Part shown: positions 4,901 through 38,928 of the stretch, in pieces
Numbering within the stretch: position 1 is the stretch's first letter
Layout: every line of letters starts with the position of its first letter
Translations under genes and position numbers: made by a program
The notes under the pieces: model-generated
Told to the model about the DNA's origin: nothing
The model's database searches: none
The model's input: the letters and a program-made list of their open reading frames with translations, nothing else
Origin: a virus
DNA: 64,000 bases
IMG/VR virus record: IMGVR_UViG_3300048597_000118
Coordinates: 37,170 to 101,169 of that record
Direction: 5' to 3' (one strand)

Positions 4901-5563
4901 AGGATTAAGGAAATTCTCAACGTAGGCGTTGTTGCCTTCAGTGTAAGAAACAATCTGGTACTCTTCAGGTGCTGTATTACGAACAGTCATTTGTAGAGCC
5001 TGTACAGAGTCTTCATACACTACAGGCTCAGCAAAGTTACCCTTTTGAATATATTGAGCATTAAAGTTAAATTGACCGCGCCCAAAGAAATTGGGGTGGG
5101 TCACATGACCAGTTTCAGTACGCAACTCTCCGTAATGAGTCACAGCACTTACCGGGCTGCCAATATAATCAAAAGTCAGTCTAAGACCTGTAGTGCGGTT
5201 GAATACGTCTAATACGTTAGTAGTGCTGACGCCAGACTCAAAACCAGTCTTAGGAACTACGTTGGGGTCTTCACCGGCCAAATAAAACCGGAGATAGCCA
5301 GGCTGGGTGCTGGGTACAACACGAATAGCAGTAGCGTTGGCAGCGCCCTGTTGTAAGGCTTGCTGTAACGCAATAGAACCAGAGCTACTATCTTCACCAA
5401 AAAGAGAGGCTAAAACAGAACGTTGTTTAGAAGTTACAGGGCGCAAAGGACCACGGTTAAATTCCCCGATGATAGCGTAACCATCACGCCAGGGAGCAGT
5501 AGAAGGAACGGGGCCTAAGATCCGAGAATCAAAAGAAATATGTGGGAAAGTATAATCAGCCAT
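1964..5563 (-). CDS. Contractile tail sheath protein with large inserted domains
   Basis: N-terminal IIGEFNRGP...LFG sheath motif; C-terminal sheath fold (ICDARNNSEDD...GIINILIQARPIFPGDYL); ALSPGDYGNNIRVTI; 1199 aa. Confidence 0.9.
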   Translation of the reverse strand: MADYTFPHISFDSRILGPVPSTAPWRDGYAIIGEFNRGPLRPVTSKQRSVLASLFGEDSSSGSIALQQALQQGAANATAIRVVPSTQPGYLRFYLAGEDPNVVPKTGFESGVSTTNVLDVFNRTTGLRLTFDYIGSPVSAVTHYGELRTETGHVTHPNFFGRGQFNFNAQYIQKGNFAEPVVYEDSVQALQMTVRNTAPEEYQIVSYTEGNNAYVENFLNPGFSLLSSENGQQEGLTIASQPFYINEDAGLKGIVVTGHFSPSTTVNGVVTSISGLREITFDATFGALGADWEPTADQLTILEDSALLINESVYLIESAANTDASVTLELGNNLSSTVEEDSRVTIAPRVASITPGATTSTVAIKGLTSSTIVVGTKLTFGHSKETFVVDSVTTPYVATTGLVTVTVAGNVAEKTKVNDYIVLTAPNTAAVTKPFRVHFPSKSKILVSYGYVQTDTFANLSAQQDGYNYFKVPNLTGADAYYVLTEGNGNKAIEFKYLVAPLSYSTATVLGQESVGIKILYGLPNDSRLNLTQGTQWTVPFVRTQVVVGGRAGTPEAYAKGTPLANIMRDLEYAIYADPAFSSMTSAVENVIGMTPYMFQVRPSITGLESNRCLWNLVRYVAGPELVFSAMDDDKFMVESVSNVVINNYEDYGVTFNGTYYPISAASTNYVEFDMPSEVQSAFSDELYVGALISLESQDQTRDVLMSLTKDGIYTQDNYGPDKYYAYTGGRDSGSFAYRDFYALDGRPLVRIQALSPGDYGNNIRVTIIPDEVSEGSARFYLQVEDTSAEVSLGGPKVESFYLDNKAVNTDTGVYVETETSNLVRVYLIPAIEPSNPIVRAARLTPDIYTQLPLRLAPALEAQDNSYSTGFTRFGAQGSSTISDVFLRKGTNFSAAGDATSAIEARKAGYLEALELVRSIDVTWIGVVGIYYGDNDYKEVFEKLKEIVDSSGPSTGGFRRAVVQLSPTVTPRSAGTMRTQVNSPRFIQIAGMAQGRSMSGIAYRSEPVVGAYIGLGASRGPHLSPASTYGERSVIGFTYSSINPTPSNLEAYTQSGTEVFYLDPGLNVFKFLNGISSTTNNLLRHVSVVHSWDQARDRIYKSLLSYRSQNISPQLLSRIASACDAVLAEFVRNEMLSAYQPTICDARNNSEDDARRGIINILIQARPIFPGDYLKVTDILDFRSSLTINALPGPRVDQF

Positions 5564-10177: not shown

Positions 10178-11473
10178 TTAGAAGGTACCGAAGCTGAGGT
10201 CAGACTGGAGAATCTGATTAGCACGGATATCATCGGGCTCGCACACATCCAAGATGCAAATCCACTCAGGATATACAGCAAACGGTAAGAACGCGTCACC
10301 CATTTGCATAACCCGTCCAGGAGGTGCGGGAGGCTCTTGGGTTCCACTAATCCGAACGTATACGCCGGGGTTACCATCTTCAGCTTCACCCACACAATGT
10401 TGAGTCATACCCAACTTCGCACTGGGGTCATTCATGTGCTGAGCAGCAACTAAAGCAACCTTATGAGCAGGCCACCAATGCTTAATAGTGTTGTCTACAG
10501 GGTCACGATACAGACCGTTAACTACCCGAATCCGGAGACCACCTAAGGAATAAAGGTCGCCGCCAGGACCCAAGGTTACAAAAGAGCTGGGGGGTTGTTG
10601 ATTAGCAGTAGCAAAATCAGCACTGCCATTGTTCATAAACAAAGCAGCCGGAATACCCATGTAAGACTTGACGAGGTTATTCTCTTGGAGAATGGTCAAC
10701 AAGTCAGAGTGCATGATGATCTCAGTCACCATGTTTTTGTTGGTGTTGAGCAACCACTGCTTCAACTGACGGATAGTGTAAGCGAGGTCAGCTCTATCAT
10801 CAGTCCAGGGCACACCAAAGCGCTCATCAGTAGACCGGAATAAAAACGCTTCAGGGCGTCCTTTATCGTTGGTCATAGTTTGGTTAGCAGTGTAACCATG
10901 GAATAGACCACCGGAAGCGATATCACCGCTAAACCCTTTATAGGAGAAAAAGTTGTGCGCGGGAATCTGGGTGCTGACATCAATGGAGTAGTTAGTCCGA
11001 GGGTCAGTGTAGCTTACTCCGCCTAAGAGGATTTTGGCACGGAATAAGTCAACGGTACGACGGTGACGGTTAACAAGTTTTTGAATCCGACGTTCAATAA
11101 TTTGTTGAGGACTCCACTGGCTATTCATGGTGCCAGGTTGACGGAGTTGGTTAATGAAAGACTGTTCGATGAAGTCTTCTTCACGTACAACTACAGGAGT
11201 AATCAACCGACGTTGAATCCGGTCGTCTTCGATGAAGCCGCCGCCGGGCACACCGAAGCGGACGATGGGCATAATACCCAGTCCTTCTACGATTTGCTCG
11301 ATGACGATGGTGCGTTCGTTGATCATCGTAGAAGGGAATAGGTCGTCAAATTGACCCTGCTCTACAATGTCAAAGCCCCGCGCTAGCATAGTCAGCTGGA
11401 GACTACCTAAAGAATGTAGGTCTCCAACGTAACTGTAATCTGTAATCTCAGGATGAAACTCTTGGACTGGCAT
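10178..11473 (-). CDS. Major capsid protein (HK97 fold, lambda gpE-like)
   Basis: 431 aa after the protease/scaffold; LFPS...ERTI, PIVRFG, C-terminal FLPFAVYPEWI typical of the major capsid E family. Confidence 0.85.
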   Translation of the reverse strand: MPVQEFHPEITDYSYVGDLHSLGSLQLTMLARGFDIVEQGQFDDLFPSTMINERTIVIEQIVEGLGIMPIVRFGVPGGGFIEDDRIQRRLITPVVVREEDFIEQSFINQLRQPGTMNSQWSPQQIIERRIQKLVNRHRRTVDLFRAKILLGGVSYTDPRTNYSIDVSTQIPAHNFFSYKGFSGDIASGGLFHGYTANQTMTNDKGRPEAFLFRSTDERFGVPWTDDRADLAYTIRQLKQWLLNTNKNMVTEIIMHSDLLTILQENNLVKSYMGIPAALFMNNGSADFATANQQPPSSFVTLGPGGDLYSLGGLRIRVVNGLYRDPVDNTIKHWWPAHKVALVAAQHMNDPSAKLGMTQHCVGEAEDGNPGVYVRISGTQEPPAPPGRVMQMGDAFLPFAVYPEWICILDVCEPDDIRANQILQSDLSFGTF

Positions 11474-11512: not shown

Positions 11513-12682
11513 CTAAACAGGGAGATTAAACTCTCTACCTAAGTCAGTAGCACGCTGCTTGAGTCGCTCAAGAGTGCTCAAGTAGGGAGTCATTTCTACC
11601 GTGGTAGATTTAGCGGTAGGAGCACCATTTACATTGGTGAACTTGTGGGCTTCAGAGGTAGACAGCTGATTTAACAGTTGCCACATCATTTCTTCAGACT
11701 CAGGGCTCATACCAGCATTTAGCTTATTGGTGTACAGCTCTTTAGTCTCAGCGGAGATGTTCAACTTATTAAGACGTTGCAGCTTAGCGTTGGTCTCTTG
11801 ACGACGGAAGGTTTCCGTATGCTCGTTAAGAGTGGTTTCTAAGTTGGAGAACTTTTCTAACAATTCGGAATACTTACGGTCACGGTCTGCGAGCTCTTGG
11901 CGGAGAACTAAGTTCTCTTCTTTAAGAGTTTCAACATCAGCAGCAGGGTCGGCTACAGCGCCACTAAACGCTTGGACGGAACCTTGCTCGTTGACTTCAG
12001 TATTAGTAATCGGGGCTGTAGAGCTTTGCTCGGCCGCCGGCGTAGTAGTAGGCGTAGTAGACGTCGTAGTCATAATAGAGGGTTGAGAAAATACTTCTTC
12101 TTCTTTAGATATAGTAGATTGTTGAGTAAATACAAAACGCACTGTTTCAGTAGGCTGTGTAAACGCTTCAACTTCAACTACTTCTACCCTAGGTAATTTG
12201 GTAAAAAAAGGCTCATTTGTCAAAGCGTGACGCTCTAGTACAGTGCCTACTTTCTCTCCATTCTCACGATTAACAGCATTACGGGCTAACTCAGGACTGG
12301 CATATCTATACTTCCCAGATTCCACGTCATTTAATGCTTGCTCATCTACAGGGTCATATAACCCAAATAACGCTTCGCCTTCCTGCACAATGTTATCTAA
12401 AAAGGCTACTGCGGGCGTTCCCCCAGAACTAAAAACATTATTAGGGTGACCAAGATACAAAGGCGGTTCATAACCTAAGACCCCAGATTCCCAATTACTG
12501 ATAATCTGGTCAAAGTCTTTCTGGTCTTCTACTACCTGACCGTATTTAGGGTGTTCCCACGAGCCAATACGACTGATAGGCACCTTGATTAATTTCTTGC
12601 CCTTAGACTCAACCACCTCAGCAGCAGGAGCCGGGCTAAGCACTTCTAAATTTTCCATGGGTGATTCCACACTATTAGGCAT
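11513..12682 (-). CDS. Mu-like prohead protease / scaffold
   Basis: GSWEHPKYG, LYLGH, AVAFL, YRYASPE, ALTNEPF motifs of Mu gpI-type proteases; coiled-coil C-terminal scaffold. Confidence 0.88.
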   Translation of the reverse strand: MPNSVESPMENLEVLSPAPAAEVVESKGKKLIKVPISRIGSWEHPKYGQVVEDQKDFDQIISNWESGVLGYEPPLYLGHPNNVFSSGGTPAVAFLDNIVQEGEALFGLYDPVDEQALNDVESGKYRYASPELARNAVNRENGEKVGTVLERHALTNEPFFTKLPRVEVVEVEAFTQPTETVRFVFTQQSTISKEEEVFSQPSIMTTTSTTPTTTPAAEQSSTAPITNTEVNEQGSVQAFSGAVADPAADVETLKEENLVLRQELADRDRKYSELLEKFSNLETTLNEHTETFRRQETNAKLQRLNKLNISAETKELYTNKLNAGMSPESEEMMWQLLNQLSTSEAHKFTNVNGAPTAKSTTVEMTPYLSTLERLKQRATDLGREFNLPV

Positions 12683-13439: not shown

Positions 13440-14069
13440 ATGGAAAGTAACAATCCTACGTACCTATTAGCCACTTTAGACCAACTACGCTCATATCTAA
13501 CAATTACAGAGTCCTCTTTCAGTGAAGGAGCTTTCAACTGCTCTCTAATAACCCGCAACACTAAAGTAGCACCTCTTAAATTTCAAGCCCTTGAATTAGC
13601 GAAGAAATTAACCTATGAGTGGGACCAACTAAAGACTAGAGTCAACGTATATCAAACATTAACCGACTTACCGGAGTCAAAAGACTTGGCTAGTGCCGCC
13701 TGCTTTTATTACTGCCACAGTCTTATCCTTGACTCTGTGGGTTGGGCTAATTTTGTCTCAGGAAAGCTACGGTACCGCATATATGGTACCCCTTATATGC
13801 GAGAAGAATCAGAATTGTTAGACCGTAAAACCGTAGTAGGTGCAGCAGCAATATTATACGGGCTGTCCATAAATGAATATATAGGCTCCCACTACACAGT
13901 CAAAACACCAGAGGGGAAAGAACACTTCCTTCGTGGGGCAGAAAATCATTGCTCTTGTAGTAGATACTCAATAGGACCCAATGGATTCTGCGAGCATTCT
14001 GCTTTAGGTAAAGTCTATTGTGATAATAGAGCTTTGCTGGTTAATACTGGTTTAGCCTCCTTCTTTTAG
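13440..14069 (+). CDS. SWIM zinc-finger protein
   Basis: YTV...HCSC-x10-CEH SWIM-like signature near the C-terminus. Confidence 0.7.
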   Translation: MESNNPTYLLATLDQLRSYLTITESSFSEGAFNCSLITRNTKVAPLKFQALELAKKLTYEWDQLKTRVNVYQTLTDLPESKDLASAACFYYCHSLILDSVGWANFVSGKLRYRIYGTPYMREESELLDRKTVVGAAAILYGLSINEYIGSHYTVKTPEGKEHFLRGAENHCSCSRYSIGPNGFCEHSALGKVYCDNRALLVNTGLASFF

Positions 14070-15539
14070 GTTCTTTTTGGGGTTGCCGGCGGCCGGCTTA
14101 GCTGGCTGTCGGTCTTGTTGTTGAGGCTTGACATTACCAGTAGGTCTACCAGGCTCTGCTTTCTTAACCGCTTCACCTGTGGGCTTTTGTAGTGGCTCAA
14201 TTAATATCTGTTTAATGAACTTAACGTCAGCAGAAGTTTGTTCACGCTCGCTAAGACCAGCCATTTGACGCACCATGGCCCAGTCCATACTATCCAATGG
14301 GTTAAGATAAGCCTTCTCAGTTAGACCAGTTACTACTTGCATAGTAGCTACCCGGTCTTCAGGTCGGTCACTATATTGATTAGCAAAAGTAGGCGGTATC
14401 TTAGCCGAAGCCCTATTAAAATTCCATTGCTGTACAGTCATTAGACACTTCTGTACAACATGGTTGATTAAAGCCCGCCGCTCATTATAAATGGTCTTAA
14501 AGTAAACCTCCATACGACGCTCACGAGCAGCCTCTAAGGAGTTAGTGTCCATAATCAGAAAGTATGGCACTATATGCCGGATAGACTCAGCATCTACAAA
14601 CCGGAGGGTGTTTAGAAACACATCACCAAAGTTGTCACTAGAAGGAATAGAACCAATTTCCGGCTTAAAGTCGTTACCAGCCTGAAGTTGCGGCAGTAGT
14701 ATATGCCGTAAGTCTTCTTGGTTAATTTCTAGCTGCTCTTGGATATACTCCAGAGTAGTCTTTGGTCTTTCATTACCAGTGGCTGGGTCTAATATCATCT
14801 CATCTCCTAAAGAAGTAGAGGGAGACCTAATCCAGGTAACACGTTTCCCTACGTCATTCATAGCGCTGACCATCATTTCGACCAGCACCTCTTTTAACCG
14901 GAACCACTTATACGAGGGCGCCACTAAAGAATGACCATAGTAATTCCCATACTCAGAGTTAGACGCCAGATAGATATGCTTCCACATCTGTAATTGACGT
15001 TCACCCCTAGGGTCTAAAGTATGATGTTGGAAGATGCCAGACTTATGACCGCTTAACGTCTTAGAGCCTTCAGTTAAGAGCCCATCTTTATCCGGGTAAA
15101 TAGTAATAGTGGTTGGATGATAAGTTAAAACATCTTTTAAGGTGAGCGCCCCAAAGGTTAAGTTATAGCAAACCTCAGATACAGAGAAGCCCGCCCAGTC
15201 CTTAGTAAACTGTATTTCCCGTAAAACTTGTTCCCATGCTTTTCCAGAGTGGTCTTCTAAGGCTAATAGACTATTACGGTGGAACTCTTGAATTTCTTCA
15301 TCTGGATGAACTGGAAGCCCAATAGACCCAACAATAGAGTTAACTCTTGTCTGTTCTGCTGAGTGAATGGTTAAGTCTTGTCGCACCATCTTTTCATAGG
15401 TACGGAGCTTAGCTTGTAGCGGTCGGTTTAATAATAGTTGGTTAAACTGGCCTTGTTGTTGTAGTTTGTACCGTGCGCTGCGTCTATCTGCGTAGCGTAT
15501 ATCACCGGCCGGGAACGGATTAGTAGGTTGAGTAGGCAC
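14052..15539 (-). CDS. Portal protein (Mu gp29/DUF935-like)
   Basis: 495 aa; YEKMVRQD..I, WAGFSVSEV, GNYYGHSL; first gene of the head operon. Confidence 0.88.
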   Translation of the reverse strand: MPTQPTNPFPAGDIRYADRRSARYKLQQQGQFNQLLLNRPLQAKLRTYEKMVRQDLTIHSAEQTRVNSIVGSIGLPVHPDEEIQEFHRNSLLALEDHSGKAWEQVLREIQFTKDWAGFSVSEVCYNLTFGALTLKDVLTYHPTTITIYPDKDGLLTEGSKTLSGHKSGIFQHHTLDPRGERQLQMWKHIYLASNSEYGNYYGHSLVAPSYKWFRLKEVLVEMMVSAMNDVGKRVTWIRSPSTSLGDEMILDPATGNERPKTTLEYIQEQLEINQEDLRHILLPQLQAGNDFKPEIGSIPSSDNFGDVFLNTLRFVDAESIRHIVPYFLIMDTNSLEAARERRMEVYFKTIYNERRALINHVVQKCLMTVQQWNFNRASAKIPPTFANQYSDRPEDRVATMQVVTGLTEKAYLNPLDSMDWAMVRQMAGLSEREQTSADVKFIKQILIEPLQKPTGEAVKKAEPGRPTGNVKPQQQDRQPAKPAAGNPKKNLKEGG

Positions 15540-16829: not shown

Positions 16830-17633
16830 ATGAATCGTCTACCAGAAACTATCACTATCAGCCGTGAAGACCTTCCCTCCGGCGAGTATGATGTGATCCT
16901 TAAATGCCCGTACTTTGGAGATTGGCGTAAAGCTCGTAAACTTTACCCCAACGATATGGACTCCCAAGGTCGTCGCAAAAGCCCTGGTTATGCCGCCGAA
17001 GAACTCCTGCTCTGTCAGCAGATTGTTGATGTTGTAGACAAAGATAATCGCTCTGCTATGGGTCGCCGCCCTAAAGATGTTATTGACCGTCTTAAGTTAT
17101 TCACTATCCCAGACCGTCAAGCTCTTCTAACCATCTTTTTGGAATTGTTCTGGGTAGGTGCAGACCAGGCTAAACAAGCCCGCGATTTAGCCAATGAATT
17201 CATGGTGACTGCTGCTCTTACTTACACTATCGAAGCAGATAAAATGCCCATGGCTGGGGTCAGCGTTACCTATAATGCTGTTAACACTGGTACTCAAATG
17301 GCGGCAGACCGCCGTTATATCGGAGTGCAAGAACAAGGTTGCACCCTAGAAGAACTTCTATTTGCTACTTGTGTGGCAGCAGTAGATGGTGACCCAGTAG
17401 AGCAACCTAAAGACAGTATCAGTCTGTTAGATGAATGGACTATCTCTGATGTTCAGTTTGCTAAGTTGGTCTTTGTTAACCAATTTACTTTAGATGAAGC
17501 CGGAGAAGACCGGGCAAAGGAAGCGGGAAAGCGCTACTTGGAAAAACTTGGTTTGAGCAAGCTCGCTTCAACGCCCGCACCCAAACCCAAGCAAACCTCC
17601 AAGCCGCCGGCCAACAATGTTCAAGAATTGTAA
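16830..17633 (+). CDS. Tail assembly chaperone (gpG-like, two repeated domains)
   Basis: Immediately upstream of the giant gene; internal repeat (EELLLCQQI...PKDVIDRL / EELLFATCV...PKDSISLL); contains an in-phase slippery heptamer. Confidence 0.8.
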   Translation: MNRLPETITISREDLPSGEYDVILKCPYFGDWRKARKLYPNDMDSQGRRKSPGYAAEELLLCQQIVDVVDKDNRSAMGRRPKDVIDRLKLFTIPDRQALLTIFLELFWVGADQAKQARDLANEFMVTAALTYTIEADKMPMAGVSVTYNAVNTGTQMAADRRYIGVQEQGCTLEELLFATCVAAVDGDPVEQPKDSISLLDEWTISDVQFAKLVFVNQFTLDEAGEDRAKEAGKRYLEKLGLSKLASTPAPKPKQTSKPPANNVQEL

Positions 17634-18106
17634 ACTCCGCTCTTCTAATTAACCCCGGTTTATTCGAGTGTGGTGTAGCCTCATACGACCCAGAAATACC
17701 TACTGCAGGTAGATTCTGGATTTTACCCACAGGCTACCCACATCGACGCTGGGATATCACCGAAGACCAACTAAAGAATCTATCTATTGTTAGGTCCCGG
17801 GTAAATGAAGACGCAGCTAAAATTCTTAGCCAGAGATACCAAATAGCCAATTGGCTCTCAGTTAGTCAGTTAGCCCCAGTATCGTTAGCAGAATGGTTAG
17901 GCGTTAGTGAAGACCCTTTTATAAGACAATATGGCTATCCCATGTTGATTATAGAAGCAGTCAAAATGGAAGTAGAGAACCTAAGCCGCAAGATTAAGCA
18001 AAAGCAAGCTGAACAAGAACAAAGACTAAAAGAAGCCGTCCATAATCCTACCTTGTCTGCCCTAGGAGGAAAACACGGTGACCCGCTATCTAAAGTCTTC
18101 CGTTAA
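17525..18106 (+). CDS. Frameshift-extended tail chaperone segment (gpT-like), reached by -1 frameshift at G GGA AAG
   Basis: GGGAAAG at 17525-17531 is in XXXYYYZ phase (GCG GGA AAG); the -1 frame is open from 17498 to TAA at 18104-18106 with no ATG near its 5' end. Confidence 0.85.
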   Translation, partial: GKALLGKTWFEQARFNARTQTQANLQAAGQQCSRIVNSALLINPGLFECGVASYDPEIPTAGRFWILPTGYPHRRWDITEDQLKNLSIVRSRVNEDAAKILSQRYQIANWLSVSQLAPVSLAEWLGVSEDPFIRQYGYPMLIIEAVKMEVENLSRKIKQKQAEQEQRLKEAVHNPTLSALGGKHGDPLSKVFR

Positions 18107-18194: not shown

Positions 18195-21100
18195 GTGTCA
18201 GATTTTACTTACACTTCAGACCCGGCTCTACAAAAACTTATAGAGCTTCTAAAAAACCAAGAAATAGTCCAGGCAGTTAAGGAGAAGCTTGCTGCTAGTG
18301 GACCGGCTATGACAGCCACTATCTTCTCAAGACAGTTAGCACAAGCCTTAAATGAAGTAGTAAGTGATAAAGGACTTCAAGCTGAATATAGTATCACAGT
18401 AGAGCTGGTAGACGCCTATTTAAAATCGGAGAACAGAGAAAGAGATGTTTTTCCAGAACAACAGGCACAATGGGCGCGGCTTAGATCCAACGTAGCTGGA
18501 CATTCTATAACCGCCGACTTTGTAGAAGATGTACACACTAAGCATTTAGACCCTTACAAAGCCATAAAGGACTTCTCAGATAAGTTCAAAGGCAATGTAG
18601 AGACTAAGGGGTTTGCTTCTAGCATCGGAGCCCGTGGACTAAACGTAGACCAAAGTTCTGAGCGGACGTTTACTTACTATGACGACAATGCCAGATTCCA
18701 GGGTAATAGACTAGCTGAGTCTATAGATAGTGACGGTAGGTTTAGTAGGCAACTAAAACTTACTTCTGATAGTTACGCTACCCCGCAAGGGTATATCAGT
18801 AGACCAGCTACCCAAGATTATTACAACCTATTTGCCGATAAAGAGCGGTCTGGTATGGGCTTTAGAGGCTCTATCTTCCAAGTTCAAGAGGCGGGCTTTA
18901 TGTCGGGTATAACACAGCGCACTGGCAGTACTGAGTTAGTCACCCAAAGATTATCTTCTGTACAAGTCATATCAGCTGCATATGACAAAGAGGAAGAAGC
19001 TTCCAGCCCTATGAACTTATATGGATCTAACGATGTCAGCATATATGCTTCTGAAGTCTTAGCCGAGCGTCACAAAAGACCATTAAAAATGATGGGCATA
19101 GAAATGCCCGGAGGGTCTGTACACGCTAAATTGGGTTACTGGTATAAAGAAGGTACAGCCGGCGATGTAAACGATGTGCAGTCTTTCTTCATCAGCTCTC
19201 AGAACTTAACCCATACTTTATCTCGGTCTAACACAGTAGAAGACATGCTGTTGATTAATAGACCGTCTGACGAAGCAGGGCTGTCTACTTTTAATTCTGT
19301 AGCTAAAGAATTAAAGATAGCCGCCGATGCTCTGATTAGTGTCGCCAGAGACCAAGCTCAGAATAATACTGCTATAACTAGCCTTTCTGATATATCAGCC
19401 TCTAGGAGCTTCTTCAGACGTTTTACAGACAATATAACGGCAGCAGCGGGTACAGAGGTTAACAAAGAAAACCGGACTATCTTCGCTAACCAAGAGATTA
19501 AAGGTCAGTTTAGCCGTATGTTTAAGGAAGCTGCTGAGTCTAAGTCTAACAAGCTTATCATTACACAACAGTACTTTGAGCAGTCCTTAATAGGCAGAGA
19601 AGGAGATTTTGGCTCAACATTACTATCTGACTCTGATGTTGGTTATTTACAAAGTTTGGCGTCTAGAGGCGGCATCAAAATTGGTGTGACCGGCTCTAGT
19701 ATGGGCGGCGACTCCCAAGGTCTTTTTAGTTTGTTAGATAAGTTCGAAGCTGCAAAACCTGGAAAGCTGACTGGGTCTCAGCTAAAGCGGTATAACCTGC
19801 TTAAAACATTAATTAGTGGTCAGCCTGGTCAGGAAAGTGCCTTCACCTTAATGCCGAGCCAATATCTACATAGTAAGTCTATGGCTATGTTTAGTGGCTC
19901 TGGAAGACTATTGGAGTACGCGTTGGGCTCTGCCAACTTCAGTGAAAAAGCTCTGGTGCCAGCGTCGAGGCAAGAGCCATCAGATGAATTTGGGTTAAAG
20001 ACTACAGACAACATAGAAGTAGCTGGTTTCTTTAGGACTAAAAACAATAGTCTGAGTCTGCTATCCAAAGCTGACCAACAGCGTATAAAAGACAATTACT
20101 TCTACGGCATAGGTAGATACCAAGAAGGAAAAGAGTCAGAGGAAGAGATAGACGACCCTAACGGTCGATTAATTAACAGGTATGGTCGTGATTTACGCCA
20201 CCGCTATCAAGGTGCCCAAGTACAGCAAAAAGGCAGCGCTAAATTCGTTAAGTCTGCCATAGAAATGATAGAAGGTATGGGCGGCAAAGAATATTCTGCT
20301 GAAGGGTCTTCAGATGCACTGTTCAGGTATAAAAAAGAATATATCCTCGACTCCCAGTCTGACTCTGGGTACAGATTAGTAGGGCTGAAATTAAACATAG
20401 CCCAGCCAATTTCAAGTGGCAAAGACTACTCTATTAGTCTAACCATAGGTTCAGAGTTCAAATCTATACAAACTGGTCGTGGTGGAGGGTATAAGACTGT
20501 AGAGTCGCCTATGGTCTACATCAATAAGACCCAGCGCTTTATGACTGGTGCAGTCTTTAAAAACGCCACGGATACTACCTTCCATTTCATGCGCTACAAC
20601 GAACTGGATGGAAAAATAGGTTTGGCGGCGCTCAAACCACAAGAAAGTTATGAAGCTAACTCTTTAGATGTGTTGGGTGGCTTCCTAACTACCATGCAAA
20701 CCAGCATGAATTACGAAGCTAAAGTCCGTGGTATTGCTTATACCTATGAAGCATTAGGCGCAGACATAATGAAAAAGTCCGCCGAGAGGGTAATTGCAGA
20801 AAAAGTAACTGCTTTATACCTATACTCTTCTGCTGGTGAAACACCTACAGAAACCCAAATAAGGACTGTACTCGACGCCAGACGACAAGGGCTAGGTGCT
20901 TTGTTGTCGTTGGTCCAAAAGAGTGGACGATTAGGCGACGTACTTCAAAATACACAATACGACTTCTCTGGCAATATCACTAAATCGGACATCATACCTA
21001 ATAACTGGGGTGACTCTTCCGCAGTCAGACGTGAAAGGAGAGTAGGTTTACAAAACATATTTAAAGATGTTATTCGCGACGCCAACTCTGCTAACACTCA

Positions 21101-24100
21101 AGACTTAGCAAAAAAACTAGTCAACAACTTTAATGCCGCCCTACAGAAATCCGTCGGACTTCTACCTGACGACATACGAGACTATACTTCCGGCTTCACT
21201 GGGCAATATAACGACATCATCATGCAGATATTTGCTGCCACTCCAGTAGGCATGCAGATTTATAAGGATGCTGTTAGCGCCGGTTATAGCGAATCTTACT
21301 CCAGACAAGTAGACGCTTATTCTCAACCACACACCGAAAACTATAGCCACGGTCAGTCCTTGCACTCTAAACCAGTGGTAGGTATCACTCCAGAGAATAT
21401 GGACCTATTCCGCTTAGTTTCCCCTATGTTAGGAGCTAACCCTGATGCTGTGGGCGGTAAAGTTGGTGGTTTAATCCTTAATCCTTATCCTTTAAGTCAT
21501 GGAGAACAGTTAGGTAATAGCACCGGCGGACAATATCTACGCACAGTAAGTAAGTCAGTAGGGCGTGCCCAGGTCCAACCATTTACACAACAAATAGGTG
21601 GCCTCACTAAGATTCAAGGCGGCGCCCCAGTCGTCTATAACATGCTTGGCGTGGCCAGCTCTATGCCCACACTCCAAGCTATAGACCGCCAAGGGTATAA
21701 GGAGAGGTCTGCCCAAGTCTTGTCAAAAATGGGACTCAAGGACGCGGAGGCAACTAACATAGTTAAGAGCTTAGAATCTCAAACCTTTGACCCTGTATTT
21801 GGTGGGAAAAGTAAAGAAGAAGACGAAGAAGCTAAAGAGTACGACCTGCTCTACTACTTCCCTTATGCCAAGACAGAGCAAATCATGCAACGGATGAAGA
21901 ACCTACTCTCCACCCGTCCTATGTTTGACGCTTCTAGGGAATTCATAGACTACTCTTATTCTCTAGGGCTTTTAGGTCGTTATTCTAATTACCAAATGGA
22001 AGGGGGTGATAAGAAAGACTTCTTAACCTCTCCATCTGACCTGATCGGTGGTCGGCTCTTAGATAGCATGCCAATCCAACAATTTGAATCCATAGTAGCC
22101 AGAACTGAGGCTAAATACACAGACAAGCAAAGAGAAGCAGCAACTGAATATAAAAAGATACTTAGTGACCCAAAGGCTAGTCGTGAACAAAAGATAGCTG
22201 CCGGTCGAGCATTACAGGAAATAGACCAGCCTATAATGCTCCAACTGGCTAAAGACAATGCTATTGATGTCTATGCAGTTGGCAAAGGGTATATGGGTAG
22301 TGAGCGCCCACGACTTAATATCCTTGTGGCCGGAGCTACTCAATTAGCAGACTACGGGATATATAACACTAGTTACCGTAAAGACACCTATAAATATGGG
22401 ATGAAGTTGTTAAAACCTCACCCAGTTCAAACGAATATCACTTTGAGTGGGGGGCAGATAGGTCCGGCGTCTTTACAGAGCGCAGTTCAGAAATATCTAC
22501 AACCTGGTACTGTCTTCATCGCTAGAGATACCACCATACAACACACGCAAGTAATTCAAGCCTTTAATGAGCAACTTAAGGATGCTTTAGAGGTTTCAGT
22601 TAAAGAAGTAGGTGTCACTAAAGGTCTGGAGGCAGTGAAGTTTAGTGTAGACACCAGTAGTAGTCTTACTAGACAAAGCATTAGGCAGAGTATAGTAACG
22701 GCTTTAGGGAGCGCAAATATAGACAACACTGAGATAGATGCTATATACAAAGGTGCCGTAGCTAAACTAAGGGGCGAAAACCAAGGTATTCGTGTAATAA
22801 CTGACTACAAGACCGGGCAAGTTGGGTATGTTTTGGGTCGTGGGGCTTACCAAAGCGGACGCCAAGTAGGGGAAGTATCTTCACTAAATACCACTAACGT
22901 CAAAATAGGGGATTTAGACCCTGGGGACGCCGCATTTAAGATGTGGGGTTTTATGTCTTATGACGGCGGACATGCTCAACCTCTACAAATTAGAGTGCCT
23001 GCTATTACTGGGGATGAACTTAACTCCATAAGTGTTTTAGGTGAGACTACCGTTATAGCTATGACAGGTAATACTGCCACTATAGATACCCAGTTCTACA
23101 ACGTAGAAGATTTTATGAGTGGTATGCGGGCCGGCTCTATCATTCCTAAAGGACCTATGAAGGGCGGTAAGAGAGAGTTATTCGAAGCCGCTGTTGGTCT
23201 AATAGGTCAAGAGTCTATTAACTTACTTCCGTCTACGGTAAAAGGACCTGGCGAGACTAGTATCAAAGCCGAAGATGTTTACTCTATGATCAGCCCTTCT
23301 CAAGTCAAAGCCTTTAACTTTGAGATTGGTTTGATGATGCTTGCCGATAAACAAGAGAGTGGCATCTATAAACGTCTGACTGACGCTGATACGGGCGGCG
23401 TTAACGTGGCCATGGCGCTGTCTATGCTATTCCTTAACTCCAAAGCAGATGATATTGGAGGTAAAGATAATCTGGCTATGTTATATGACCGTCTCAGTAA
23501 CACTTTATCTAGTGAGCAAAGAGATGGTAAAAGTGCTTATGGTAAGCAATATGCCGCCGCCCTACGGGCTAAAAAGTCTCTATTAAAGTTAGGGCAGACA
23601 GACTCAACTACAGCCTTTACTTCTTTTAGTAGTGCGCCAGGCTCTGCATCTTTAGCTATGTTCAGTGCTTTGGCGGGCTTTGGTAAATGGACTAGTGACT
23701 CTGAAAGTATAGAATCAGCACTTCTAAATCAAATCATTACAGCCTTAGGTACTGATAAGAAAGAGGCTGAAGCTGCTCAAAAGAGACTATCTGACGCAGC
23801 TAAAGGTCTGATGGACTATGCCTTTGCTGAAAAGTCTCGGGGTGGTGTCATTATAGAAGACTTTGAGACTAAGCCTTTAGGGCTATTGTCGTTCTTAACT
23901 AAAGCTAGTGCTGATATTTATAGAGACTTAGATAAAGAACAGTTGAGGAAAACCCGCGCCTTGGGCGAAGTTATTCTCAGCAGCAAAAGCCTATTTACCT
24001 CGCCAGAGAGTCTAATAGTTGATGTTGATGGTTTAGATGAGACTTATAAAAAATCCAGGGATTCCGTTCTGGTAGCCCTGAGTAATCTATTCTCTGTAGG

Positions 24101-27100
24101 AGAATCTACTTCTCGTAGGAAGCAAATACAAGTAGAGATGCAGCGCCGTAAGGCTTACTTGTTAGCAGGAGAAATCCATAAGATATCAGGGGGTGATATA
24201 GATGCGGCACAGCGAATACTTAATCCGACCCTAAGCGTAGACGAATTCTTAACTAGAGCAGGTATAGCACAGCAACGTAGGATTCTACCTGAAGGTATGA
24301 AGCCCCGCACAGGGTTAGAATCCCGCTTTGCTACTGTAGACCTCTGGAGCTCCATGCAGAGTATGTATGCTAAATCAGGGTCGGAACCAAGTCTAAAACA
24401 GCTGGGTGTCAGAGAGTTTAATCCTTACTTAGAAGCCATCAATCAATTAGTAGGCAAAGGTCAAACTCAAAGGTCTGTCTTAGATGACCTTATTGCTTCT
24501 ACAGGAAGTACCGCTACAGATTCTCAAAAGACGTTGCGGTCTAATTTCGAAGACACCCTCCGCAAATTAGTTGTTCGACGTAGTGCTATGGGTCCACAAC
24601 TCCTTGAAGTGCAGGAAAGATTGGAGAAACTGGGTATTACCGACTTTTCTGCTAATTCTGAATTTGGCAAGCTACTAGGTTCTTATCAAGAAGGAATAGT
24701 GGAGTCTATAGACACCTATGAGGTATCTAAGGTATCTACAGTAGACGCATTGATGGGCTTTTATAGTTCTACAGAAGCCTACGCCGGTTTAGCTGATGAG
24801 ACTATACAGAAGGCTATGCTGACACAAGCTCAACGTATGGGATACTCTTTGCCTAGTCAAAAACTAATCAGAAGCATACTAGATAAAATCAGTAAGAGCA
24901 CCCAAGATTCTGACATTACAGAAGGTGAGTACCGGGCGTTAAAAGAAGTGGAGTTGGTGTTTGAAGGTATTACGGCGGCTATTCAGCAGGCCCGCACCAT
25001 TACTCTACCAATGGAGACTAACTTCAGCAAAATTAGCACGCCGGCGGGTAGTAAAGACTCTACGGCCCTAGAAGGTCATCTTAGTCGTTCTATGACTGAG
25101 CGGCAGCTAAAACAGTATACTTATGCGCTGGAAGAGTTTGCTGATTTAACCTCCGTACAAAACGCTCTGATGAGTCTTACTAAGGCTTACTACGGCTCTA
25201 TACCAAACGCTAAACAGCGACAGTCTTTAATCAGTATGGACTTGTCTAACATCAATTCTTGGCGTTGGAATGACTTAGAACGTAATAAACAGGGCAAATT
25301 GGTTAGGTCTCAAGGTGAGGCTAAAGGTCAAACACAGGACGCTCACTCTAAACAGTTCCTATGGGATTACTTGGCTAATTACAACAGTCTTTATCGTAAT
25401 GCACTACCTGGAGAAGACAGTGAAGTCGGCTTCTCTCGCATAAGCATAGACAATTTTATTAATACGGGTAGGGCTCAAACAGATGTTATGAGCACAATGG
25501 AGCGTATTAATATCATCGCCTACGGTCCAGCTGGTAAGTCTGATGACCCTGCTGAAGAATTACAACGCCGTGCCACTAATTCAGCCACGTTTACTTTTGA
25601 TGAGCTCAGTGAAGGTATTTCACGTAAACGCACTACGGATAAACTCGTTAAATTGGCTTCTTCTGGTTTAGACCAGTATCTAGCATATATAGACAGTACC
25701 GATTTACCTGAATCAGATAAAAAGGCAGTAAGTGAGATACTAGCTAAAGAAAGAGGGCTATATAAGTCTCAAATAAACTACTTTGTCGCAGAGAGTATTA
25801 AAGGGAAAAGGTCTAAAGATGAAATTCTTGGCGATGATATATTCAGACAAGGTATAGATGACGCAGAAGTGCAGCGTATTAAACCATTTATTCCTGGAGA
25901 TAGAGGGATATTAGGTTACTTCAACTTCTTAGAAGAGTCACTAACGCCATTGAAGGAAAGCGAATCTAAGACTTGGCTGTCTACTGTTTTAAGTGGTGAT
26001 TCTGCAAGAGCTAACGCCAAACTGCGTCAAGACGAGATAGAACGACTGGCGGCGCCTGGTGGTAACATACACCAGAAAATACAACACGCCCAGGCACAAG
26101 ACCAAGGCGCTGCGTATTTAGAAGGAATGAAAAGTATATATAAGACCCTTCAAGGTATGCCTACAGGCAGGAAGTCTGTTAGCACACGAGGCAGACGTAT
26201 AAATGCACTAAAACGAAGCATTGAAAAAACACAGTTTATATCGCTCTACTCCTATGAAATAGCTTCTACTGAAGGTGGGCTACTAAGACTACAGCACCGC
26301 ACTAACATGCGCGGCGAGAAGTACAGTGAGACCGGTTTAATCTTAGGGTTAGATGTCTTAGAGAAGATGTCTCTACTATTCCAAAACAGCAGTCACGAGG
26401 CCTTGGTAGCTCAACAGGATTTGGTGACTAAGTTAGCTGCTGCTAAAAACATCATTGACCGCGTAGAAACTGGTTTAGTTAAAGGTTATCTAGGCGAAGA
26501 GGTAGATGTTAAGGCCACTGGTGTCACTCAAGAAGAATGGCAGCAGTTACGCGACCTTCAACAGGCCATGATGGCGTCCAAAATAACCGCTGTCAGTATT
26601 TTGCAGAATGAGAACAGTATTAGACAAGCCACTGGCAACCGTCTTAATATGATGGGCTCTTCTTTCATTGCCATGAATAGCTTCTTAGTAGGCGCTACTG
26701 AAGTGGCATTAGGGGCACGGTTTGATTCCGCTGCTGGTGTAACTACAGCCGGTGGGTATATGCGGTTTATGGCTAACGTAGCGCCGCGCACCAGAGATAT
26801 GGATAAATACCTTTTGGTAGACCCAGACCAACGTAAATTCCTCATTGGGCATTACAAAGAAGAGCATGACCTACAAAAACAAATAGCTGCAGCTGAAGAA
26901 ATAGGCGCTGCAGATAAAGTCCAAGCGTTGACTAATGAACTTCGTAGGTGGCAAGACTTACTCAGTATGGACCCTGAAAATCAGGTTACATCTCTAAACG
27001 AGAAGTTATTATCTATAGATGAGCAGATTGCACGGCAGAAAAATACAGTCGAATTTAAAAGCTTAGTTGACCCTGCTTCAAAGCGTGATGCAGAAGAGCG

Positions 27101-30100
27101 CCTAAATGCATTACAGAAAAAAAGAGGCATGATTAGTGATACTGCGTCAGCTATTACTAAGAGAGTGGGGAGTTATGTAGCACCTATACAAAAGACTAAA
27201 ATAAGCGAATCCCAGCTTAGCACTTTCGAAGAACTATATGGTCATCTAAAAACTATAGAGGCTCACGGTGAAAGTCAGGCTACCTTTGGTGGGTCTGAAG
27301 ATGAGAGTAAAGATAAGTTATTATCTATGCTTTCTAGACTAGAAAGCCTTATTGCTGGAGCAGAGTCTGATGAAGGTATGGATATAGCTTCTTATAGACT
27401 ATTTAAGTCAGAAGATATATTTTCGTATGTAGGCAGAGGGCAAAACGCACTTAAGAGTATTGTTTCCTCTGTTGTAGATATAACCAGCTATGAAGGCTCT
27501 AATAGTGACCAGCCTCTAGTAACGACAAAACAGAGAAGTGATGCGGTTAAGCAAACCACCGACAACATAATAAAAGAATTTTCTGATATAGACCTAAGCA
27601 TCAAACAACAATCTATGGGTCAAGACGCTACTAAGACAGCTAGAGTGTCTCAGGTCAATAAGGTAGCTGAAGCCGCCAAGATGAAAGACCTTTACTCTGA
27701 CCTATCTAAAGTCAAGGAGTCTAAACAGTATGACCGTAAAACCCTCAGTAAAGTGCTTCAAGTTCTTCGTTATAGCGGCGACCAAATCACAGATGGTGGG
27801 CTTACTGTTACAGACAGTGTTATCTCAACTATATTCTCCAGTTTTGACAGGCTAAACAAAGGCGAGTCATTAGATATCGACACTTACAGACTTTTTAATT
27901 TAGATGGTGGAGACCATAGGAAAGCCTTTGATGGATTCTTAGGTAAGATACTTACCATGTCCGAACAAGGTACTTTTACGGCTGATGAAGCTAACCAGTT
28001 ACTAGATTCAGAAGATAAAAACCACAAAAAGGCATTCAAAGACTTTTTAGATAAAGTACTAACTAAAACGAAAAAAGACCCGTCTCTAGCCGGCGATGTT
28101 TATAAGTTATTTGAAGTAGAAGGGGAAAAATATAGGAATATCTATGACCAAGGAGTTTATAACAGTTTTCTAAGTAAACTCTTAACAAAGGCTAAAAAGG
28201 AGTCCTTTGCCGCAGACCGTGCTTATCAAAAACTAGGTAAATGGCATGACTTACTCTCTGATTACGCTTTGGCCTACGCAGAAGGTGAAGGAGACTCAGG
28301 TAAGGCCCGCACTTTTACCCAAGCTGAACTCTTAGAAGCTTATGAGTCTAGCGGTAAGTCCCGCACTCTTATCGAACTAGAACTTATAACAGGTCAGACG
28401 GTAACTAGCCAAAATCGTAACGAAGTGATGGCTAAAGTGGACTCCCACTTCCTACGTTCTGATATCCTGGCTAACCGTCAAGGTATGCCTTCTTATGCCG
28501 CAGCTGGTCCAAGAGGTGTCGCCGCTGCCATTAGCTCCCTACAAGGCGTCACTATGGAAGAAATGCGTAAACGAGGTCAACTCGTTAATAGTCTTTTCAC
28601 ACCAGATGAAAGCGCCGACAATACTTTAATGATGATAAGCGCCTTCGGGTTCCAATTCATGGGATTAGGTGACTACGACGGTGACTCTTATCAAGCTGCT
28701 TTAAGCAGCGTAACTAAAGCACAAAGTACCATAGCGCGAACTAATGAAGAGTTAACTACCTTAGAAGAAAGGCTTAATCGTCTTAAAAAAGATAGGAAAC
28801 AGCAAGAAGAACGCAGAGCAATAGTAAAAACTAGCGCCGACACTGAAGAGCGTAGCAGAGTAAATAAAAGAATAGAGGAGTTAAACCAGCAGATTAGGAT
28901 TACTGAAGCCAAGCGCAGACAAGTTAAAGACTCTAATTACAGGGCTACTAGAGACCTACGGGATATTAACCGTGAGGCACGCGAGACTCAGTCTGTTAAA
29001 TCAGGGAAGGCTTATAAAGGATTGCGTTCTTATGTGTCTTCCTATCTAGCTTTACCTTCTTACCTATTTGGGGATTCAGTAACTGGTTCTGATGACACGT
29101 CTATCTATGAGTTTGGCCTTCAAGACGACGAGTTGGCGGGCACAGTTAAGCAATACAGAGACACAATTAGTGGGTATAGTGACCGGTCTACGGACTCTAC
29201 TAACTCTGTTGGTGCTTTTGCTTGGTTGAAGACAGCAAAAGGCGGTGCTGTAGCCATTGATAAGTCTGGAAAACTAGACTTTGACGTTGATGGTATACGT
29301 AAAAGCCGTGGTTCTACTGCTAGCACTATGACCATTAATAAGATGGTCGCTGCCGCCGAACAGTGGAATCAAGCCCTTATCAAAGAAAAAATACACGAGA
29401 AGATAGCGAAGAATAGCGCTTTAGATGAGGCCAAAGCTCGGCAGTCAGTAATAGAAGATATACAAAAGATGTCAGTAGATAGTTATATGAAGGAGGTTAC
29501 TGAGTTTCAGAACAGGTCTGAGGCTATATTCATGTCTATGTCTACATCAGGCAAGATATTTACTAATGTAGCTGGGAGCCAGATTAGTCCTGCGGACCTT
29601 AACTCTATCCAGTCAATTATGGGAACGACTGGTGGCGGGCTACTAGGTAAAGTCTATAACACTGTAGTGCCCAGCGCCGCCACTCAATTAACAGACTCGC
29701 TGATGAACCGTATGATGAGCAATGACTCCGTGCGGGCAGATTTCTTACGGTCAGTTAGTAACCTACAAGAGTCAGCAAGTGGATATACCTCTGTTTCTGT
29801 CTTGGGTAATACTTTAGGAAAAATAGCTGAAAGCTTAGGATCTATGACCAATGTTGGCGGCGTGCCTTGGGAACTCAGCATGGCAGATAAGGAAGCCAAG
29901 GCTTCTACTGCTTATAGGTTTATGCTGACGACTCAACAGTACCTCCGAGATGCTGCTTTGAAACCTAAAGGTAAAGTTGGTCTGGTAGAGATGGCGCGTA
30001 AATTCCGCCTAAGTGCTAGCGCCATTAGTCAAATAACAGACTTAGGTATACAAGGCATAGACGAAGATGTTCTGAGTAAGACTGTAGGCTATGACAGTCT

Positions 30101-33100
30101 GCTAAAACTTCAACCACAAGCAGCAGAAGAGGAAGTATCTAGACAGTTCCTAGATATAATCAGCCAGGACTTTTTAGGTGCCAAAGCAGGTGAAGTACTT
30201 AGTTATAGCTATGACAAGTCAAAGGCTAATACTAGCGCAGATGTGGACGCAGACATGACAGCTTTCGCCATGTTGAAGTTATTGACTGATTACACTGGTA
30301 GCCGCGCTATGACTGCATCAGAGATGATGGAGAAAGGGCATTACAGCGCTTCTCTTAAGGCTTCTAGGGATGAACTGTCTTCTAAACTAACTACTCATAG
30401 TCAGCAGGTTACAGAGTACTTAGAAAGTAAAAAAGGCACCGACAATACTCGCATAGAAGCCGCTAAACAAGAACTGAGAAACGTCGGCGTAAAACCTGAA
30501 ATGGTGGACCGTGTAGTAAAAGGCCAGAGCAATAGTTGGTACATAGACGATGACGCTTTTGTCCAAAATACCATAGCTAACCTCATAGGCAAGTTTCAGT
30601 CTCAGTTCTTAGGCGGCAACTCTGTGGCAGATGACTTTAAGTCTGTAGATCCACTCTCTACTGAGCGCACTCTCTACACCCACGGTTTAGAAGTAGAGGT
30701 TGACGAGTCTGGTGATAGTCCGACCTACAAAATAGTAAGGAGAGAAGACTCTGATAAAACTATCCGTCGGAATGCTGCATATCAAATGCAGGATAAAGTA
30801 GACGCTTATAATCGCAAGTTTAATCTGTCTGGTCAAGATGCTTTACAAGTAACCGACTTAGTAAAGACAGATGATAAAGGCAATTTTATAGACTGGGATT
30901 TAGAAACGGCATCTAGCAAGATTAAAGAAAGGGCTAAACAAGAAGCCCTCCGTAAACTAAATAAAACTTTAGGGCTTGAACACTCAGCAGAATTACAACT
31001 CTCTGCTGAAGAAGCTACTAGACTATCTTCTGGTGATATAGGCATGGCGCAAGCTGACTTACGCACTAGACTTGATGGGGTCAAAGGCGTGTCTAATCTA
31101 GATAGACTTGCCACTGAAACCGAGTCTAATGCTAAGTCTTACCTTGAAATTCTAGGTAATAAACAGTCTGAATCAAAAGCAGGTAAAGCGGCGCTCAAAC
31201 AGATAAATGAGGGTAGAGCTACTGAAGATGCATTTACTTCAGTAGACCAAGCGCGAGCCTGGTCTACTAAAGTCTTAGAAAATGAAAACAGATTACTAGC
31301 CGACTTAAATTCAATAAATGAGGCTAAGTCTGCCACTCAACAAGAGTTACAGACTATAGAGTCTCGCCGTAAAAGAGTTCAACGAGTAGATTCTACAGTT
31401 AATCAGTCCGCAGACGCATTTAAATCTTGGCAGACTACTTCAGATACCATTGATGCTCAAGTAGACTCTTTCGAGGCTACTATGCGGCAGAACATGGAGA
31501 ATAGAGTCTCTGAGTTGACCTCTAACCGTGATGCCATTGAGACGGAGGCCGAAGGTCGCAATATGAGCGTCGATGAAGTCGCTGCCACCACGTTTAGAAC
31601 TCTACAAGAGATAACTACCCGTAATCAGGCTGACGACCTTATGGATGTCTTAGTGAAGACTAAAAAGCTAAACCAAGCGGTCCAAGGAGTAGTTACTGAA
31701 GGTCAATCAGAACAGTTTGCCGCTGTTAAAGACTCTCTTATCTCAGCCAACAACTTAACTTCATTGACCTTATTAGAGTCTATGGAAATATTGGGAGGTG
31801 AGGTTACAGCCCACGCCCAAGGTATAGACTCAGCCAAGCTCAATCAGGCATCTTTAGCCCAAGCGATGTCTACCGGTCTAACTAATGTGTTAGAAGCTGT
31901 CAGGACTTATTCTGACAGTCTTAGTGATGGTAGTCAGTTTGATAACAAATTGGGCGGCGCTATCATGTCTTTCCTGTCTATGGGTGGCGTACTTCCTGAT
32001 GAAATAAGCCAGATAGTAAACCAGAATGTAGCTCAACAGGTAGGCACGACAAAAGACTATGTTGAGCAGATGCAAACAGAACAAGGTAGAACAGCCTTGG
32101 CTAATAAGCTAGCTAAGTACGGCGGTAGTGACCTAGATATCACTACTGCTGAAGGTCAAGTAGAAGCAGCTAACCGTATAGTTAGAGGACAAACAGATGA
32201 GCTTCAAACTGGCGTCCTTAAAAACTTGATGCGGGCCGGCGTTATAGATGCTATTGCTTCTGGTTCTGGCTTTACTGGACATATGTCTAAGTGGTCTGAC
32301 TTGATGCAAGACACTATTGAGTTAGGCAATATGGACCCAGCAAATTTATCAGAGTCACAGCAAAGTATTTTAGACACTGCTCGCCAGATGCCTACACCTG
32401 AATATCAATGGGGTCAGCGCCTAGAGGCCAGTCAAGAAATGGTAGATAGGTTTAACTCTGGCTTAGAAAAGCGCGGTGTAAAACAACGGATCAATGCCAA
32501 CCAACTCTCTCGGTTAGCAAACAGCGATAATACTATGACTGTTCTAGAAGAACTAGGTCTAAATAAAGATACTAAAGTGGCTACACAGTTAGGCGCTCAA
32601 CTAGAAGAGTTTAGGTCTGAGCAGCGGACAGAATCAGTCTTACAAACACCTGACACTGTACGTAATCCAGGAGTAGCGCCCTCGATGTCTACTCCTGCCG
32701 TCGAAGACTTATCTGGCGGTAATACCGGCTTGGGTTCTAGTAGACCCCAAGATATGCAAATGTTATCTATAGATAAAGAGCAGGAAATGGTACGACAAAC
32801 TCTTGCAGATGTACATCGTACAAGACATGTAAGAGAAAAAGAAGCGGAGCAAAGTAAAGCAGAGTCTGCTTTAAGACGTAACTACGGTTTCACTGAAGCG
32901 TTAAGTATCTTAGCTATACCCGCCTTGTTTGCAGCTATGCAAGGTGATATTCCGGTCACAGAACAAGTGGGCGGTTTAGTTCAGGATGTTGTGACCTCTA
33001 CTCTGACCTCAGGTACCTTTGAGCAGTCCGCTACGTCTTTAATGTTGGCTGATGGTAAGTCAGAAGAAGAGCGGGCGGCCAGACTGGCTCAAGTACGTAG

Positions 33101-33716: not shown

Positions 33717-33739
33717 CTTAGAACCTTAATTATTTAGTC

Positions 33740-35973: not shown

Positions 35974-35978
35974 CCATA

Positions 35979-36866: not shown

Positions 36867-37160
36867 CCCAATATTGGGTAATGACTCGGCTATCCTTGTC
36901 AATATTGTGTACAACACGGATAGCTGAGCCATTTGCACAAGACTCGGTCCATATACCTCTAGCCGACGTATTTGTTTAGTGACGTCATCTATATGCTTCA
37001 TGTCATGGAAGTCTACGAGGTATTGAATAACGTCGGTTGTTTTCTCTAAGTTTAATTCGGCGGCTATTTCTTTGAGTCTGTTTTGGTAATGAGCCTTGGG
37101 CTTTCTAAAGTCTATGGGGTCTGGGCGCTTTGGCGGCTTCCTTCTATTTACTCTCGGCAT
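36834..37160 (-). CDS. Small basic putative DNA-binding protein
   Basis: RLKEIAAELNL..TTDVIQYLVD is RHH-like; basic N-terminus. Confidence 0.45.
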   Translation of the reverse strand: MPRVNRRKPPKRPDPIDFRKPKAHYQNRLKEIAAELNLEKTTDVIQYLVDFHDMKHIDDVTKQIRRLEVYGPSLVQMAQLSVLYTILTRIAESLPNIGLHWRGGEIDL

Positions 37161-37534: not shown

Positions 37535-37541
37535 CGGAGAC

Positions 37542-38429: not shown

Positions 38430-38481
38430 AGAAGATTAGAAAAAAGACGATAAGCTAATTATATCATAGGTTTTCGAACGG

Positions 38482-38880: not shown

Positions 38881-38928
38881 AACCGACTAATATCGTAAGT
38901 AAAGTATTAATCTTACCGCCGCCCTTAG

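Follow-up and report, generated by a model that had tools for sequence, protein, structure and literature searches.

The window analyzed here is a 64,000-nucleotide stretch of viral DNA (positions 37,170 to 101,169 of the 101-kb IMG/VR record IMGVR_UViG_3300048597_000118), and it contains a giant open reading frame (ORF) whose N-terminal part, residues ~197-641, very probably has the phospholipase D (PLD) fold and belongs to the PLD superfamily. An earlier note on this DNA had claimed tandem PLD domains at the N-terminus of what it called a tape-measure/RNA polymerase (RNAP) protein. The domain, referred to below as the PLD head, is likely to be enzymatically active. The explanation that we favor overall, though tentatively, is that an active PLD phosphodiesterase with a preference for nucleic acid heads a giant protein that is ejected into the host. 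The PLD fold and its chemistry are already known; what appears to be new is that a distinct PLD subfamily, isolated in sequence, occurs solely at the head of giant, Cys-free phage proteins that also bear a DxDGD motif.

Half-sites and fold of the PLD head

Both half-sites lie in the frame of the giant ORF (Table 1). The composite pattern H.K-(8-30)-[GST][ST].N-(8-40)-[NT].E has exactly two matches in the 5,173 residues, at the two half-sites, compared with a mean of 0.0195 matches per protein after shuffling (n = 2,000); two matches 150-350 residues apart were found in 1 of the 2,000 shuffled proteins. The interval 18800-20050 proposed in the earlier note covers both half-sites, and the modeled domain is slightly wider (about 18783-20117). 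We assessed conservation in an alignment of 32 N-termini, gp080 of Microcystis phage Ma-LMM01 included, with overall identity down to ~20%; 28 rows reach site 2, and another row, a fragment, stops short of it. At site 1, H310, K312, N337, T339 and E349 are present in all 32 rows and Q336 in 31. At site 2, H559, K561 and N581 are present in 28 of 28 rows, S579 and E608 in 27, and N606 in 26, and a lineage-specific insertion separates GSAN from N-I-E. The His and Lys of both HxK motifs are thus invariant, as the tandem-PLD claim would have it. The giant protein as a whole is 63% identical to that of its closest relative (IMGVR_UViG_3300048597_000634; 38-80% per 250-residue block), and the two portal proteins are 95% identical. 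Judged from these identities, the giant gene seems to evolve much faster than the portal gene, or to be mosaic. The catalytic residues are kept in this fast-diverging protein, which means that the active site stays fixed.

The structure was modeled with AlphaFold2 (AF2), using an alignment of 16 homologues (A2) as input. The predicted template-modeling score (pTM) is 0.76, and the predicted local distance difference test score (pLDDT) is 83-92 around both sites; AF2 run on the single sequence gave an unusable model (pLDDT 33). A Foldseek search of the PDB returned only members of the PLD superfamily as top matches (Tdp1, polyphosphate kinase (PPK), PLD and PLD4; E~1e-8). With VIA-align, the best match is vaccinia F13 (Z 21.7, root-mean-square deviation (rmsd) 4.2 Å, 315 residues aligned), followed by PLD4 (Z 21.1), bacterial PLD 7e0m (21.0), PLD3 (20.9), PssA (20.9) and PPK1 (20.4), with lower values for PLD1/2 (14-18), Streptomyces PLD (~16) and Tdp1 (13.7). 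The structural alignments cover both lobes (model residues 17-461 or more), and the top structural match in BFVD is the first piece of Ma-LMM01 gp080. These results agree with the single-chain tandem arrangement that had been proposed from the letters.

The PLD head shares with the F13/K4/PLD3/PLD4 group (F13 9fj0, PLD4 8v08, PLD3 8s86) a single chain, two lobes and one active site, and F13, PLD3 and PLD4 are its best structural matches (Z 21-22, ~305-315 residues, rmsd ~4 Å). PLD3 and PLD4 are nucleases of the 5' exonuclease type, and the members from poxviruses are encoded by the virus. The PLD head, in contrast, is only 8-11% identical to these proteins, lacks an Asp in either HxK motif, contains a hairpin of ~60 residues between its lobes, and is fused to a phage protein of ~4,500 residues. 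Since the Z values tie with those of PssA and bacterial PLD, membership of this subgroup is not implied.

The PLD-headed giant proteins and Ma-LMM01 gp080

An exhaustive phmmer search with residues 181-700 against 1.84 billion representatives retrieved 30 proteins, nearly all of 3,000-5,300 residues. The short matches are contig-end fragments, and none of the 30 is a stand-alone PLD protein. A word-based homologue search yielded only 3-5 relatives, and 11 loci were found in IMG/VR, the longest contig being 205 kb. As far as these searches reach, the family appears to consist of giant proteins of uncultured contractile-tailed phages together with the distant gp080 of Ma-LMM01. Neither megablast nor tblastn, queried with the N-terminus and with the DxDGD block, found a match among 50,697 phage genomes. 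Ma-LMM01 gp080 was instead reached via the capsid protein, which in the window is ~30% identical to that of Ma-LMM01 and its relatives, and then by hhalign and BLAST against family members. This protein of 3,562 residues (L021, 5150-15838, minus strand; UniProt A0A7J4) is annotated as "hypothetical protein", and its automatic name in UniProt is "PLD phosphodiesterase domain-containing protein". Like the protein of the window, it has two HxK sites (HPK...GTMNVT...NVE and HVK...GSSNYG) and a DFDGD motif at 2537, and its gene adjoins the portal gene (gp080/gp083). It is, however, strongly diverged (no tblastn match; hhalign E 0.009) and 1,600 residues shorter. Among the papers searched, none combines Ma-LMM01 with phospholipase D.

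Conservation by BLAST coverage is concentrated in six blocks of the giant protein, residues 150-750 (the PLD head), 1000-1900, 2200-2400, 2600-2900, 3400-4100 and 4900-5100. Exactly one GDxDGD motif is found in each of the 22 homologues of at least 3,000 residues and in Ma-LMM01 gp080, and an invariant R-x-G-x-P lies ~60 residues upstream of it; homologue P0023 has an additional, unrelated D-x-D-G-D near its C-terminus, which lacks the preceding Gly. At the level of this motif, the giant protein may include an RNA polymerase of the two-barrel type. The "RNAP" of the earlier note thus gains an invariant motif, but searches of the PDB with the DxDGD block, as a sequence and as a seven-row profile (A3), found no polymerase. 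Ma-LMM01-type phages have been described as lacking an RNA polymerase and depending on host transcription (PMC9927357, PMC5780444).

The closest precedent for such an architecture is gp96 of Thermus phage P23-45, a 5,002-residue tape measure fused to a virion two-barrel RNAP at residues 327-1124 (PMC10770324). Both proteins are giant (5,002 and 5,173 residues), are encoded at the tape-measure position, bear a DxDGD motif, and are presumably ejected to start transcription. They differ in that the RNAP of gp96 is N-terminal, whereas the protein of the window has the PLD head at its N-terminus and DxDGD at residue 3493, and belongs to a phage with a contractile tail. No sequence similarity between the two was detected, and the gp96 paper does not mention PLD (PMC10770324). 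The earlier note did not recognize a combination of PLD, RNAP and tape measure. The pairing of PLD with the RNAP-type motif is indeed absent from the papers searched, but it is family-wide, gp080 included, and not unique to the window.

Probable ejection and possible substrates of the PLD head

The giant protein has no Cys in 5,173 residues, as against 45 in the other giant ORF of the window, and essentially all full-length homologues (at least 3,000 residues) are also free of Cys. Proteins that pass unfolded through a channel for secretion or ejection typically lack Cys altogether, and we read its absence from the giant protein as a point in favor of ejection. The giant gene adjoins the portal gene in the window as well as in each of five relatives, Ma-LMM01 among them. 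It is preceded by a chaperone ORF that resembles lambda G/GT, with an open -1 frame that stops just before the giant gene; the G/GT arrangement normally precedes the tape-measure gene. The pair formed by the chaperone and the giant gene is separate from the sheath/tube/baseplate operon and runs divergently from the portal gene. Between the sheath and the baseplate wedge, the tail module, which lies upstream of the window, contains no ORF longer than 940 residues. In L022 (record 19170-39169), the sheath is followed by an ORF of 251 residues (phrog_34837), which, to go by position alone, is probably the tube, by ORFs of 483, 533, 614, 211, 373 and 748 residues, by ORFs of 171, 364 (baseplate wedge, phrog_6) and 850 residues, and then by fibre-like proteins, with no conventional long tape-measure gene among them. 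The tape-measure label of the earlier note is therefore a candidate assignment made by gene position, after a frameshift chaperone and with no long ORF in the tail module. A search for virion proteomics of any family member found none. Taken together, the lack of Cys, the portal adjacency, the G/GT-like chaperone upstream, the tail module devoid of a long ORF and the precedent of P23-45 gp96 make it fairly probable that the giant protein is carried in the virion and ejected.

We propose that residues ~197-641 form a single-chain, two-lobed phosphodiesterase, in which each lobe would contribute one His-x-Lys, an Asn and a Glu to one active site. In the PLD mechanism, one His attacks the phosphodiester to give a phosphohistidine and the second His donates a proton to the leaving group, without a metal. 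The PLD head would be the N-terminal part of a Cys-free giant protein that most likely travels in the tail lumen or virion before its ejection into the host, and could act as a Nuc/NucT-like, EDTA-resistant nuclease or an end-processing enzyme that would reach the cytoplasm together with the DNA of the phage. The N-terminus of a tape measure is head-proximal, and would thus leave last, with the DNA, which favors a cytoplasmic target. That the substrate is nucleic acid is a preference we hold with reserve, and it comes both from this topology and from the fact that the named sequence matches are nucleases.

These matches are as follows. The window's own protein has no match to PLDc_2 at E ≤ 1, but 6 of 16 members do, the best being the lobe-2 half of homologue L002 (30.1 bits against a cut-off of 27, E 4.8e-7) and the other five scoring 16-25 bits. 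Matches to RE_NgoFVII (E 0.008-0.03, 14-16 bits) are under its cut-off of 23.8 bits; DISARM DrmC is matched in 3 of 16 members (E 2.2e-5), and the NucT model of NCBIfam is a further named nuclease match. In a search of the PDB with the A2 profile, the best matches are NucT (6ehi, E 0.023) and BfiI (2c1l, E 0.55). The ESM-feature neighbors of the PLD domain are the PLDc_2 and NgoFVII clusters. With the Nuc, NucT, BfiI, NgoFVII and DrmC nucleases, whose matches (E 0.02 to 2e-5) are under family cut-offs, the PLD head shares the lobe-2 signature GSxN-x-S/T-x-x-A-x-x-x-N-x-E. Nucleases of these types are single-HKD proteins that dimerise, whereas the PLD head carries two diverged lobes in one chain.

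Several observations weigh against an active, nucleic-acid-directed PLD enzyme. The protein of the window, searched as five overlapping pieces, has no meaningful match in Pfam or PHROGs, and phmmer of residues 201-700 against PDB sequences gave chance matches only. The matches to nuclease-type families are weak, and their main basis is the short GSxN...NxE stretch. In the structural comparison, the lipid enzymes PssA and PLD 7e0m are within 1 Z unit of PLD3/4, so that structure does not discriminate substrate. The canonical Asp of HxK(x)4D, which the earlier note had already failed to see, is absent from both sites, the residue at +5 after Lys being Tyr (site 1) or Phe (site 2); at site 2, some homologues have an Asp one residue beyond the canonical position, where the window's protein has Ser. 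The Asp is not universal in the PLD superfamily, Tdp1 also lacking it, and we therefore do not take its absence to exclude membership. The isoelectric point (pI) of the whole domain ranges from 5.1 to 9.8 across homologues and is acidic to neutral (5.1-6.6) in 17 of 28. Such acidic-to-neutral values are not shared by non-specific DNases. Finally, 6 h into infection by Ma-LMM01, 67% of all transcripts are still those of the host, and no more than 0.17% of its genes change (PMC5780444). This transcriptome speaks against the injection of a general DNase or RNase, and bulk degradation of host DNA was dropped as the leading mechanism for this reason; the acidic pI also counts against it.

An injected phospholipase is the alternative that survives best, although we regard it as rather unlikely. 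The PLD head would then remodel or hydrolyze host membrane lipids and help the tail-lumen protein and DNA to cross the cytoplasmic membrane. The fold matches lipid-acting PLDs (PssA, 7e0m, PLD1/2 and Streptomyces PLD) as well as nucleases, the giant protein is apparently ejected, and both the acidic pI and the absence of host shut-off in Ma-LMM01 would fit a non-DNA substrate. The type VI secretion system, a relative of contractile tails, delivers PLD-type effectors (Tle5/PldA), which offers an analogy. The best sequence match to a lipid-enzyme family, however, is to cardiolipin synthase, at E 0.12 and in one member. Moreover, the PLD head is N-terminal and ~4,300 residues away from the sole hydrophobic segment, and the membrane-acting parts of tape measures are tip-proximal and C-terminal, as are the metallopeptidase and transmembrane regions of P23-45 gp96 (PMC10770324).

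It is improbable that the PLD head is a phosphodiesterase for some other substrate, such as polyphosphate, a host-defence nucleotide signal or a phosphodiester-linked polymer of the envelope. The PLD fold does serve many substrates, the C-domains of PPK1 match at the Z value given above, and the phmmer search shows the family to be isolated from the named PLD subfamilies (giants and fragments only). There is, on the other hand, no positive evidence for any particular one of these substrates, and PPK requires N and H domains, none of which was detected here.

Slightly more doubtful still is a role as DNA-end handler, in which the PLD head would bind, nick and rejoin, or covalently hold as a phosphohistidine the leading end of the genome, in the manner of Tdp1 or of K4, a nicking-joining enzyme packaged in the poxvirus virion, so as to couple genome entry or circularisation to the ejected protein. 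The N-terminus of a protein at the tape-measure position would lie nearest the DNA end in the virion, a topology established for tape measures and applied here by extension. The nearest structural neighbors belong to the F13/K4/PLD3/PLD4 clade, Tdp1 tops the Foldseek list, and the absence of host shut-off in Ma-LMM01 fits as well. Tdp1 is nevertheless much lower than F13 by Z (13.7 vs 21.7), and the Tdp1-like reading was ranked down for this reason. A catalytically dead PLD-fold module that serves in binding or packing only, as is thought for vaccinia F13, is very improbable: F13 is the top structural neighbor and the canonical Asp is missing, but, at ~20% identity, His, Lys, Asn and Glu of both half-sites show little or no variation while the giant protein diverges quickly.

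If the favored reading of an ejected, nucleic-acid-directed PLD phosphodiesterase is extended to the whole polypeptide, one ejected chain might bring in first a membrane anchor, then a virion RNA polymerase and finally a PLD enzyme, independent of metal, that acts on the leading genome end (by K4-like nick-joining or phosphohistidine capture) or on host nucleic acid, so that the PLD head would pilot or process DNA in a way coupled to the onset of transcription of the phage. We put this forward as an improbable speculation. If true, the fusion of a nuclease to a virion polymerase would add a new architecture to the proteins that phages eject, and it would occur in a lineage described as lacking a polymerase and not taking over its host. 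Bloom-forming Microcystis is the host of Ma-LMM01-type phages, and the conserved, active-looking enzyme at the head of a Cys-free giant in tape-measure position suggests that enzymatic cargo is probably injected by these phages and their many relatives that have not been cultured. PLD enzymes need neither metal nor cofactor, an advantage for a domain that has to refold once it has passed through the tail. The PLD head is small and Cys-free and has a cultured relative, and the question of its substrate is thus directly approachable.

Other features of the window

The coordinates of the PLD head, of the remaining parts of the giant protein and of the neighboring structural genes, which are of the kind carried by a contractile-tailed phage, are collected in Table 1.

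Table 1. Features of the window discussed in the text (window coordinates; residues are those of the giant protein).
Feature	Position	Strand	Details
Tail sheath	1964-5563	-	
Major capsid protein	10178-11473	-	
Prohead protease	11513-12682	-	
Mu-type portal	14052-15539	-	
G/GT-like chaperone ORF	16830-18106	+	267 residues; in-phase G GGA AAG at 17525; -1 frame open for 191 codons
Giant ORF	18195-33716	+	5,173 residues; 0 Cys; PLD domain, GDYDGD motif and C-terminal hydrophobic segment
Two-lobed PLD-superfamily domain (predicted)	18783-20117	+	Residues ~197-641; AF2 model with alignment A2
PLD lobe 1	18783-19268	+	Residues ~197-358; conserved G-x-x-x-R-P and F-Q-x-Q-E blocks
HxK, half-site 1	19122-19130	+	H310, K312 (H310-A-K312)
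SSQN-L-T...E, half-site 1	19194-19241	+	Q336, N337, T339, E349; SSQN at 19194-19205; E349 (in T-V-E) at 19239-19241
Long helical hairpin between lobes	19272-19457	+	Residues ~360-421 (~60 residues); DSSP of model, helices 180-209 and 217-241 (model numbering)
PLD lobe 2	19479-20117	+	Residues ~429-641; modeled and aligned to PLD structures
HxK, half-site 2	19869-19877	+	H559, K561 (H559-S-K561)
GSAN...N-I-E, half-site 2	19926-20018	+	S579, N581, N606, E608; GSAN at 19926-19937; N606-I-E608 at 20010-20018
DYDGD, candidate metal-binding motif of two-barrel RNA polymerase	28671-28685	+	Residues 3493-3497
Strongly hydrophobic segment	32883-32957	+	Residues 4897-4921; sole one in the giant protein; within the conserved C-terminal block

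The second giant ORF of the window (48452-58810, plus strand), whose 45 Cys were mentioned above, encodes 3,452 residues. Its other ~2,900 residues have no family match that we could find, and the C-terminal part is an SF1/PIF1-like helicase (residues 2969-3137, AAA_19 6.5e-15). An ORF of 271 residues at 44944-45759 on the minus strand has weak AP2 and NUMOD-like matches, of the homing-endonuclease type.

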